Virus record (IMG/VR): IMGVR_UViG_3300046004_000818
Coordinates: 1-64,000 of that record
Length of the DNA stretch: 64,000 bases
DNA from: a virus
Direction: 5' to 3' (one strand)
The position numbers were made by a program, and so were the translations under genes. The notes under the pieces were generated by a model that saw only the letters and a list, made by a program, of their open reading frames with translations, had not been told where the DNA came from and searched no databases. This document shows positions 1-929 of the stretch, piece after piece (position 1 is the stretch's first letter; the number at the start of each line of letters is the position of its first letter).

Positions 1-133
1 ACACCAGACACCAGACACCAGACACCAGACACCAGACACCAGACACCAGACACCAGACACCAGACACCAGACACCAGACACCAGACACCAGACACCAGAC
101 ACCAGACACCAGACACCAGACACCAGACACCAG
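1..133. repeat. Perfect heptamer tandem array (ACACCAG)x19, probably continuing beyond the window edge
   Basis: Read directly: 133 bp = 19 exact copies; reverse complement is (CTGGTGT)n. Confidence 0.97.
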
Positions 134-178
134 AGAGAAACCTTACACCAAACTACTGTATAACACTGTATGAAACCC

Positions 179-262
179 TGTGGATAACCCTGTATAACCT
201 GTGAATACTGTGGATAACTCCCTCAAACTTTTGTGGACAAGCTGTGGACAATTTGTGGTATA
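179..262. promoter_or_regulatory. Cluster of co-oriented DnaA boxes
   Basis: TGTGGATAA (reverse complement of TTATCCACA) at 179-187 and 209-217; near matches TGTGAATAC 200-208, TGTGGACAA 232-240 and 243-251, TGTGGTATA 254-262. Confidence 0.8.
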
Positions 263-359
263 GAAACAACAAACCGCGTATAACGTGCGATCATAGCACG
301 GTCAAGGTGTCACCCTAGGGTAACGCTCCCAGAGCCTCATAGCCCGTCCTATGCCTTCC

Positions 360-406
360 AACCTTACATGAAACTTACGTGAAACTTACGTGAAACTTAC
401 AGTTTC
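360..406. repeat. 11-bp tandem direct repeat (GAAACTTACGT), about 3.5 copies
   Basis: aaccttacatg aaacttacgtg aaacttacgtg aaacttacagtttc. Confidence 0.9.
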
Positions 407-412
407 TGGGGC

Positions 413-427
413 TGGCACGGATCTTGC
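413..427 (+). promoter_or_regulatory. sigma54 (-24/-12) promoter consensus
   Basis: TGGCACGGATCTTGC matches TGGCACG-N4-TTGC with canonical GG-N10-GC spacing. Confidence 0.7.
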
Positions 428-450
428 CGTAGTGGGTACTTACTTAACAT

Positions 451-520
451 GGCACCAATATAGTGCGCTGGATGCACTGGTTTGGTGCATGACGTATGGC
501 CTATGCACCAAGATGGTGCG
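451..520. promoter_or_regulatory. Three NtrC-type palindromic sites
   Basis: GGCACCAATATAGTGCG 451-467, TGCACTGGTTTGGTGCA 473-489 and TGCACCAAGATGGTGCG 504-520 match TGCACCA-N3-TGGTGCA. Confidence 0.7.
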
Positions 521-647
521 CGGCGCGCTGCCCTACCCACCTGACTGCCTCATAACATTTTCCACACTTTCACCTAATACTTCACATATTTTGGCACGAT
601 ACCAAGGCCTAACCTAACCTAACCTATCTTATCAAAACCTATCTACA

Positions 648-774
648 TCTATACACAATTAGATTGTGTATAGAGAACACACCCTTCTCATAATCAATTC
701 CTAATATCTTATGAGACTCCACTCACTCCTATACACAAGCCAAATGTGTATAGAAAACAGCCATTTCTCATAAT
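648..774. repeat. Duplicated unit (80-bp period), each copy with a CTATACACA..TGTGTATAG inverted repeat and a TTCTCATAAT motif
   Basis: 12-bp perfect inverted repeat at 648-674; 9-bp inverted repeat at 729-753; TTCTCATAAT at 685-694 and 765-774. Confidence 0.85.
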
Positions 775-811
775 ATACACCCCGTTACCCGCCCCACGCC
801 CTCAAAAATTA

Positions 812-859
812 AAAAATATCTAATACTTATGAATTTTTTGGCAAAAATATCTAATACTT
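812..859. repeat. AT-rich 17-bp direct repeat AAAAATATCTAATACTT x2
   Basis: Copies at 812-828 and 843-859. Confidence 0.85.
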
Positions 860-929
860 TCTTTAATATGGCACCACTCCAATAGTGAACACCCACTTAT
901 AATCTGGCAAACTCTCATAGAGCCATCAC

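Follow-up and report, generated by a model that had tools for sequence, protein, structure and literature searches.

In phage T5, a 1.2-kb untranslated and repeat-rich region called Repeat Region 3, or the injection-stop (iss) region, carries paired boxes for the host protein DnaA; this region is conserved across T5-like phages, and the model in which it holds the incoming DNA is itself a hypothesis (Davison 2020, bioRxiv 10.1101/866236). By analogy, it is the closest described system to the non-coding region discussed here, i.e., positions 1-929 of the IMG/VR virus record IMGVR_UViG_3300046004_000818, which represents an uncultured phage from lake water. The full virus contig, referred to as G000, is 82,971 bp long, and its bases 1-64000 form the stretch that was analysed (hereafter the window). 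A first-pass annotation had described positions 1-929 as an array of binding sites for several unrelated host proteins, possibly at a genome end, and had pointed to the likeness to T5, which the preprint bears out.

The comparison with related phages leads to a reading that we favour tentatively, with confidence somewhat short of even, in which the region would be a control hub for replication and packaging that recruits host DnaA, joined in this lineage by a sigma54/NtrC promoter. The idea of several unrelated host proteins as a conserved design holds for DnaA, whose sites persist across the clade, and fails for the others: perfect sigma54 sites recur in one further lineage and NtrC-type sites in none. 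What stands out most is that host-factor sites seem to have been exchanged around a core word that stays fixed.

DnaA boxes and the conserved core word

Relatives were collected by terminase searches, which gave seven loci from viral contigs and 18 from metagenomes (given L-numbers below) with terminase identities from 98% down to 30%. The best cultured relatives by protein are Vibrio phages at ~30% terminase identity, and Vibrio phage 51E28.1 was dropped as a comparison because its gene order is not comparable. A megablast search of positions 1-3400 against 50,697 phage records gave no match, and a terminase profile run on a single genome for each prokaryote species hit 199 stretches; none of these was confirmed, and the scan yielded neither prophage relatives nor a clue to the host. 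The features that carry the argument are the following.

155-262, minus strand: co-oriented DnaA-box array with a period of ~11 bp (TTATCCACA read on the minus strand)
179-187 and 209-217, minus strand: perfect DnaA boxes, TGTGGATAA, found by consensus scan
232-240 and 243-251, minus strand: DnaA boxes with one mismatch, TGTGGACAA, found by consensus scan
200-208 and 254-262, minus strand: weaker DnaA-box copies, found by eye
156 and 190, minus strand: CTGTATAAC units, 2 bp shorter, found by eye
490-497, plus strand: TGACGTAT, the sole invariant non-coding word of the clade, in single copy and on the same strand

The six co-oriented DnaA-box matches annotated earlier are all present, two of them perfect, two with one mismatch and two weaker (by eye). 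With up to one mismatch allowed, the window contains 28 matches compared with 15.5 expected, a number reached by none of 100 shuffles; four of the 28 fall within 73 bp, and two of the three perfect matches in the window belong to that cluster. The whole genome holds four strict TTATNCACA boxes, two of them in 1-929. The contrast is far stronger across ten dereplicated lineages, with 32 strict boxes in 7,387 bp of the region versus four in 164,746 bp elsewhere, and 200 shuffles of the region averaged 0.53 boxes in total and never exceeded 3. Of the ten lineages, nine carry one or more strict boxes. Counted by locus, where chance would give ~0.1-0.4, there are seven in L008/L009, six each in L010 and L022, four each in L007 and L018, three in L021, two each in L013, L019 and L020, and one each in L004, L005 and L024. 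L006, L012, L017, L023, L026, L027 and L029 are without boxes mostly through the sequence itself being missing there, and no strict box was found in the region of L025 or of the 30%-identity locus L028.

A word census blind to DnaA placed the box words immediately below TGACGTAT and the words that overlap it. All four bases, G, C, T and A, are seen at N in the consensus, the spacers vary and the flanking DNA is unalignable, i.e., the DnaA motif persists while its surroundings diverge; the arrays have a period of 11-12 bp, and pairs stand 2 bp apart. Judged by these patterns, the boxes are true DnaA boxes rather than look-alike phage iterons, and no DnaA C-terminal domain (PF08299) is encoded by the phage. 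Strain variation was seen in X2, one of three lake-water sequencing runs (X1, X2 and X3, from three studies) whose Logan contigs hold pieces of the stretch: GG inserted after position 193 turns a CTGTATAAC unit into a full box. A further X2 form skips 37 nt (193 to 231), pointing to copy-number variation of the boxes.

Of the 20 loci examined, 17 have a single copy of the core word TGACGTAT upstream of the terminase, always in the same orientation; the word is present in all ten lineages and invariant in all 11 alignment rows, at a distance to gp1, the first gene of the rightward arm, of about 300-440 nt in most lineages. A DnaA-box pair directly follows it in L004, L005, L007 and L008 and also directly precedes it in L007 and L008; in this phage, the boxes lie ~230-310 bp further left than these flanking places. 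The order shared by the clade is a DnaA cluster, TGACGTAT, a GC-rich stretch, an A+T-rich and G-poor repeat stretch, a gene with two helix-turn-helix units, and a gpA-type terminase. Within that order much of the DNA itself is new to each lineage: the closest relatives with enough upstream sequence, L004 and L005 (93% terminase identity), can be aligned with the window in just two stretches, 551-599 and 742-1800, and the DNA left of 551 is lineage-specific. Literature searches on TGACGTAT in phages and on DnaA boxes with a cos site and terminase returned nothing relevant among the matches listed. As a side observation, 46-bp repeats occupy 915-1123 of L015, directly upstream of TGACGTAT, and a TGGCACCAGGT-N6-ACCTGGTGCCA palindrome lies there at 773-800.

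Sigma54 and NtrC-type sites

The core word of this phage is surrounded by a second set of sites.

413-427, plus strand: perfect consensus sigma54 -24/-12 box, TGGCACGGATCTTGC (TGGCAC-N5-TTGC), 77 nt upstream of TGACGTAT, start to start
451-467, unstranded: NtrC-type palindrome with three mismatches to the 14-base consensus
473-489, unstranded: NtrC-type palindrome with two mismatches
504-520, unstranded: NtrC-type palindrome with one mismatch

The 14-base NtrC consensus TGCACCAnnnTGGTGCA and the sigma54 consensus are as given in PMC8743547. The annotated sigma54 site is indeed a perfect match, one of two in the window. At up to one mismatch, sigma54 matches are not enriched in the window (eight compared with 5.6 expected, 23 of 100 shuffles reaching eight). 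Perfect sites are a different matter, as the ten lineages hold five in 7,387 bp of the region versus one in 164,746 bp, with a shuffle mean of 0.03, and shuffles of this phage's own region gave a mean of 0.00. L018 (52% terminase identity) carries four perfect boxes at 218 (minus), 535 (plus), 554 (minus) and 609 (plus), with a near match at 517 (plus), for ~0.01 perfect sites expected in shuffles of its region; these boxes flank a DnaA array at 233-350 (four strict boxes, ~11 box-like copies by eye) and TGACGTAT at 587. In L019, L020 and L023, a near match, TGGCATGGATTTTGC (TGGCAT-N5-TTGC), starts 39 nt upstream of TGACGTAT, so that, together with L018 and this phage, three lineages have a sigma54-type box ~30-80 nt upstream of the core word. 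Near matches also occur in L010/L013, and the closest relatives have no sigma54 box.

All three annotated NtrC-type palindromes exist, and those at 473 and 504 exceed chance: one match with at most one mismatch compared with 0.03 expected per genome, and two with at most two mismatches compared with 0.53. The palindrome at 451, with three mismatches, belongs to the chance class, in which nine matches were observed for 6.1 expected. The palindromes stand on either side of TGACGTAT, exactly where relatives have DnaA-box pairs, and the sigma54/NtrC block is identical in contigs of the three runs from three studies. Taken together, the sigma54 and NtrC assignments are moderately supported by the sequence comparison. 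The use of sigma54 by a phage has a precedent in Pseudomonas phage YuA, as cited in bioRxiv 10.1101/2023.10.13.562163.

The remaining host-site resemblances, to SlmA and Chi, are chance on the counts obtained. The SlmA-like site GTGGGTACTTAC is present at 432-443, as annotated, and its frequency is at chance level: against the consensus GTGAGTACTCAC with up to two mismatches, the window has three matches for 3.57 expected, 64 of 100 shuffles reach three, and a better match lies inside a gene at 60151. The description of the heptamer array at the left edge as Chi-like did not survive, since 1-929 contains no GCTGGTGG, the E. coli Chi consensus (which need not be that of the host), and the unit shares only the CTGGTG core, six of eight bases. 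The window as a whole holds GCTGGTGG ten times, between 9079 and 37300, for 2.7 expected, a number that none of 100 shuffles reached; the plus strand of the structural arm accounts for nine of the ten, and some fall in Gly/Ala-rich repeat coding sequence (37260, 37293).

The contig ends and the gene layout

The first-pass annotation had suggested that the region lies at a genome end, and G000 carries the IMG/VR label "direct terminal repeats". The labelled repeat consists of 119 nt of heptamer array alone, and 119 is a common assembler word length. Three perfect tandem arrays are involved.

Window 1-134, unstranded: (ACACCAG)x19.1, copies 100% identical, at least 134 nt long, a minimum
G000 82756-82855: (TGGGCATCCA)x10, abutting the closing heptamer array
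G000 81587-81690: (AGAGCCTGACTGCC)x7.4, 1.1 kb left of the (TGGGCATCCA)x10 array

At the other end of G000, 82853-82971 consists of 17 copies of the same ACACCAG unit. Because the heptamer array stands at both ends, the assembler is taken to have been stopped by a tandem repeat it was unable to bridge, and window base 1 is therefore no demonstrated chromosome end. Position 1 is thus an assembly break within a 7-bp array, and a "direct terminal repeat" that is pure tandem array of assembler-word size is no evidence for a genome end. Contigs of five relatives (L008, L009 and L020-L022) run uninterrupted through the homologous region, and the contig ends of relatives share no single site. Unit and place of the perfect arrays differ among the G000, L004 and L022 lineages, and such arrays would be fast-evolving insertions, to which no role is assigned. 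Two of them, the (AGAGCCTGACTGCC)x7.4 and (TGGGCATCCA)x10 arrays, flank the first leftward gene, and unrelated perfect arrays occupy similar places in L004 (1-108, a 10-mer x10.8) and L022 (2142-2267, a 13-mer x9.7). Four exact heptamer copies were also found in 28 stretches of other viral contigs, with mostly 4-5 copies per stretch, mostly at the 3' ends of frames of ~300-400 amino acids (aa) and in unrelated context. A plasmid-type centromere reading of the arrays was discarded, as neither ParB_N (PF02195) nor the ParA-type AAA_31 (PF13614) gave a match; neither ParA/ParB nor a tyrosine integrase was found.

The possibility that the segment is chimeric host DNA is contradicted by a 10,685-nt X1 contig that agrees with the window at every base of 293-3400, and the runs of two further studies contain identical pieces of the window (286-643 and 317-469). 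Positions 135-292 have no contig cover in X1.

The region is non-coding as annotated, its largest open reading frame being 75 aa long (390-617, GTG start), and the DNA of that frame is absent from the closest relatives. Window positions 1-929 cover ~80% of the intergenic region between two divergent arms, which measures 1,184 bp or more, since the length of the array is a lower bound. This gene-free region separates a leftward early/replication arm (minus-strand genes 40480-82594) from the rightward arm that starts with gp1, gp2 and the terminase (plus-strand genes 930-40502). Its placement upstream of the packaging genes was correctly described, with gp1, gp2 and the large terminase beginning at 930, and the rightward order continues as follows: gp1 (a small helix-turn-helix protein), gp2, large terminase, HNH nuclease, portal, protease and major head protein. 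The left arm encodes SbcCD, thymidylate synthase, PolA, an exonuclease, a gp2.5-like single-stranded DNA-binding protein, a 953-aa primase, an SNF2-type helicase and a ligase, and, farther out, many small open reading frames without family matches. The first leftward gene starts at G000 82594, with a sigma70-like promoter just upstream. The region likewise does not form a normal promoter, as had been noted, with one weak sigma70 match in 1-1000 compared with 2.0 in shuffles.

Several side observations concern the genes. The first leftward gene (248 aa, G000 81848-82594, minus strand) contains a GGCTTT x13.8 repeat encoding Ala/Lys/Glu-rich repeats. No Pfam family was found for gp1, for gp2 or for the first leftward gene and its counterparts in relatives. 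A Shine-Dalgarno-like word precedes 33 of 55 gene starts, no tRNA genes were found in the window, and a repeat with a 66-bp period (x9.5, 78% alike) lies at 24337-24964 inside a 2,208-aa open reading frame.

Further features between the DnaA array and the terminase

The remaining elements of the region and the genes behind it are listed from left to right.

309-324, unstranded: palindrome GTCACCCTAGGGTAAC, found by inverted-repeat search
363-400, plus strand: 11-bp tandem repeat CTTACGTGAAA x3.5, lineage-specific
517-543, plus strand: GC-rich segment ending in CTGCCCTACCCAC; relatives have GCGCCTCTACCC-like (CTACCC-like) words in the same place
557-599, plus strand: conserved block ATTTTCCACACTTTCACCTAATACTTCACATATTTTGGCACGA (ATTTTCC...CTTTCA), 85.7% identical to L004/L005 over 551-599
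625-774, plus strand: two 70-nt direct repeats, 71% alike, each ending in TCTCATAAT, operator/promoter-like
648-674 and 729-754: TATACACAA...TTGTGTATAGA palindromes, one per 70-nt repeat
779-800, plus strand: conserved word CACCCCGTTACC..CCCAC
812-828 and 843-859, plus strand: two 17-nt repeats AAAAATATCTAATACTT in an A+T-rich block, which also has TTTTGGCA/ATGGCACCA words
898-903, plus strand: lone TATAAT, 27 nt before gp1
930-1340, plus strand: gp1, 136 aa with two helix-turn-helix units; it opens the rightward arm in the relatives found
1318-3377, plus strand: gp2 (130 aa, helical, no family) and large terminase (556 aa)

The annotated palindrome at 309-324, the 11-bp tandem repeats and the further repeats are all real. 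Related CCCTAGGG/TAGGGTTAC words were seen in the same region of L008, L010, L018, L020 and L022, by eye and without control counts. CTAATACTT occurs three times here and AAAAATATCTAATACTT twice, and these words are nearly absent from the rest of the genome; GTGTATAGA occurs three times in L004/L005 as well.

The plus strand of 550-929 contains 8% G, with a GC skew of -0.54, and the same G-poor bias (-0.33 to -0.51) is seen in the L004, L007, L008 and L010 lineages, i.e., the nearer half of the clade. Such a strand would be rut-like if transcribed rightward and would favour R-loops if transcribed leftward. An RNA element in 436-929 was considered on account of its fold z-score (-3.69) and rejected, the score being attributed to the DNA palindromes; Rfam at a lax threshold gave no matches in 1-1500.

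The large terminase carries a lambda gpA-type ATPase domain (PF05876), and in the relatives found its gene comes after gp1 and gp2. The predicted gp1 structure (predicted local distance difference test, pLDDT, 83) had no match in the PDB at E <= 0.001, and its Atlas matches, scoring 0.87-0.88 (HTH_23/HTH_28, Mor), serve as leads only; the gp2 model reached a pLDDT of 62. Family and structure searches identified neither gp1 nor gp2 as a small terminase; gp1 is a candidate binder of the repeats, either small-terminase-like or a Mor-like regulator.

The favoured reading and the points against it

In the hub reading, host DnaA would bind the box cluster and help to organise or open the hub at the start of phage replication, and it may also control the divergent promoters. 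The part between TGACGTAT and gp1 would serve packaging recognition (cos-like) and control of the late operon, a suggestion made because the terminase is gpA-type and a helix-turn-helix gene directly follows. The NtrC-type sites beside TGACGTAT and the sigma54 box may together form a rightward promoter of this lineage, driven by host sigma54 and NtrC. As for the boxes taken by themselves, assistance at an origin is possible and is placed first, because they lie in a divergent, low-skew region and no DnaA-like domain is encoded; promoter control only appears rather unlikely, T5-like holding of an end more doubtful again, and titration improbable. The minimum of cumulative GC skew lies towards the junction (lowest bin 74-76 kb) and its maximum at ~40 kb.

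Several observations weigh against this reading. The switch in GC skew is not independent evidence, because the genes change direction at those two places as well. Polymerase, primase and helicase-type genes are all encoded by the phage itself, and no well-studied lytic phage of such a kind is known to start replication with DnaA. The A+T-rich block (804-882, with a GC content of ~0.35 in 601-900) is ~550 bp from the boxes, and in relatives it is roughly 130-300 bp from them (by eye), which does not amount to a compact origin. In T5, which has the only conserved set of DnaA boxes known to be well described in a lytic phage, the boxes lie off the origin (Davison 2020, bioRxiv 10.1101/866236). 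The L014-L016 lineage has no strict DnaA box and carries 46-bp direct repeats (x4.6) instead. On the sigma54 side, the palindromes start 24-77 nt downstream of the box, the non-canonical side; the box is ~500 nt from gp1, so that no gene follows shortly downstream; NtrC-type palindromes are found in no other locus compared; and GCAC/GTGC-rich palindromes with other spacings in L015 and L008 make a phage-encoded reader possible. Searches for a phage-encoded activator (PF00158) or sigma54 (PF04552) gave no matches, and any sigma54 activity would therefore depend on the host.

A bolder version, which we consider doubtful, starts from the arrangement around the core: TGACGTAT and the GC-rich and A+T-rich stretches would form a fixed cis-acting core, with the flanks as exchangeable sockets for DNA-binding proteins. 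The contents of these places are DnaA pairs or arrays in most lineages, NtrC-type and sigma54 sites in this phage, sigma54 boxes in L018 and 46-bp iterons in L014-L016. If true, a socket swap would change the host signal, replication or nitrogen state, that gates the start of phage replication or packaging.

Alternative explanations

The best-surviving alternative, on balance still unlikely, is purely transcriptional: DnaA in most lineages and sigma54/NtrC in this one would only regulate the divergent early and late promoters and tie phage expression to host replication or nitrogen state, with no role in origin function or packaging. The setting suits it, as the region is a divergent intergenic one with a sigma70-like early promoter on its left side, only a lone TATAAT without a -35 element before gp1, operator-like palindromes in duplicated 70-nt units, and a sigma54 box with NtrC-type sites; DnaA is, moreover, a known transcription factor. 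However, up to seven strict boxes are far above what known DnaA-regulated promoters carry, the boxes here stand 400 bp or more away from the early promoter and no closer than ~650 bp to gp1, and the invariant TGACGTAT core is not promoter-like.

Somewhat less probable is an end element of the T5 kind, in which the repeat-rich region would adjoin a physical chromosome end and membrane-associated host DnaA, maybe with other host proteins, would retain incoming DNA, make it pause or shield its end. A gpA-type terminase is a type known from phages with fixed ends, and if the DNA were cut at the TGACGTAT/GC-rich core, then the boxes, the arrays and an inward-reading early arm would come to lie at one end. 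The description of T5 Repeat Region 3 gives 1.2 kb with DnaA-box pairs 3 bp apart, palindromes and nine tandem repeats (Davison 2020), and paired or phased boxes, palindromes and tandem arrays are found here too, in at least 1.18 kb. The contig evidence speaks against such an element, since window base 1 is an assembly break, five relatives' contigs traverse the region and contig ends never coincide; in addition, the boxes are upstream of an early promoter here, not after early genes as in T5.

The repeats may instead be read by phage proteins, e.g., gp1, the likeness to host sites being coincidental. This explanation, which is most plausible for the NtrC-type palindromes and for the CTAATACTT/TTTGGCA/GTGTATAGA repeats, is improbable for the region as a whole. 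For the DnaA boxes it meets a 9-mer that matches the host consensus and varies mainly at N across lineages with terminases only ~50% identical, with no DnaA-domain-IV homologue encoded. It gains from gp1, conserved beside the region with a predicted DNA-binding fold, from region-specific words almost absent elsewhere in the genome, from the GCAC/GTGC palindromes of other spacings in L015 and L008, and from the 46-bp iterons at the same place in the L015 lineage. The palindromes together give TGCACCA-N3-TGGTGCG, 13 of 14 consensus bases, beside a perfect sigma54 box, which again argues for host proteins.

A sponge that titrates DnaA (datA-like), and maybe sigma54 holoenzyme and NtrC, so as to shut down host initiation or rewire host regulation is very unlikely, since two perfect and two near boxes here and one strict box in each of the closest relatives are too few, and boxes that keep a fixed place beside TGACGTAT point to an effect in cis on phage DNA, despite the six or seven strict boxes in L008, L010 and L022 and the perfect sigma54 boxes of L018 in both orientations, some without a gene directly downstream.

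Comparison with known systems

The lambda cos site (cosQ-cosN-cosB, upstream of Nu1/A) resembles the right part of the region in being non-coding and directly upstream of a small helix-turn-helix gene and a gpA-type terminase, and in combining a core word that is conserved with short repeats and a GC-rich segment. It differs in that lambda cos is not known to have DnaA boxes, and gp1 here is a candidate small terminase only.

In common with promoters of the glnAp2 type, this locus has, inside 110 bp, a perfect sigma54 box together with palindromes that agree with TGCACCAnnnTGGTGCA (the consensus in PMC8743547) at 12-13 of 14 positions. In those promoters the enhancer sites are 100-150 bp upstream, whereas here they are downstream of the box, the first gene is ~500 nt away, no activator is encoded by the phage, and the module is not kept in close relatives.

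Bacterial and plasmid origins (oriC, P1 oriR and pSC101-type) and datA have co-oriented TTATNCACA boxes with ~11-bp phasing as well, and the origins are likewise intergenic, with an A+T-rich stretch and a neighbouring gene for a DNA-binding protein. In contrast to origins, the A+T-rich block here stands off by roughly 130-550 bp, polymerase and primase are encoded by the phage itself, and a Rep, DnaA or helicase-loader gene was not recognised in it.

T5 Repeat Region 3 is the nearest match. Its description gives ~1.2 kb of conserved untranslated DNA with box pairs (2-3 bp apart in the two systems), palindromes and direct repeats, in a phage that also has replication genes of its own. The T5 region lies inside a mapped 10-kb terminal repeat and after the pre-early genes, whereas the boxes here are upstream of the early arm; as described there, the T5 pairs are inverted repeats, whereas the arrays here are co-oriented and phased; and a sigma54/NtrC module is absent from T5.

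Conserved clusters of DnaA boxes are known, and unexplained, in T5 relatives, which are lytic and have their own replication genes, and the phages compared here add a second, unrelated clade, which bears on whether phages read host replication or nutrient state via host DNA-binding proteins. The natural variants in which NtrC/sigma54-type sites or iterons replace the boxes would provide an experimental handle. In the clade described here, the boxes stand alongside the invariant TGACGTAT, close to the genes for the terminase.

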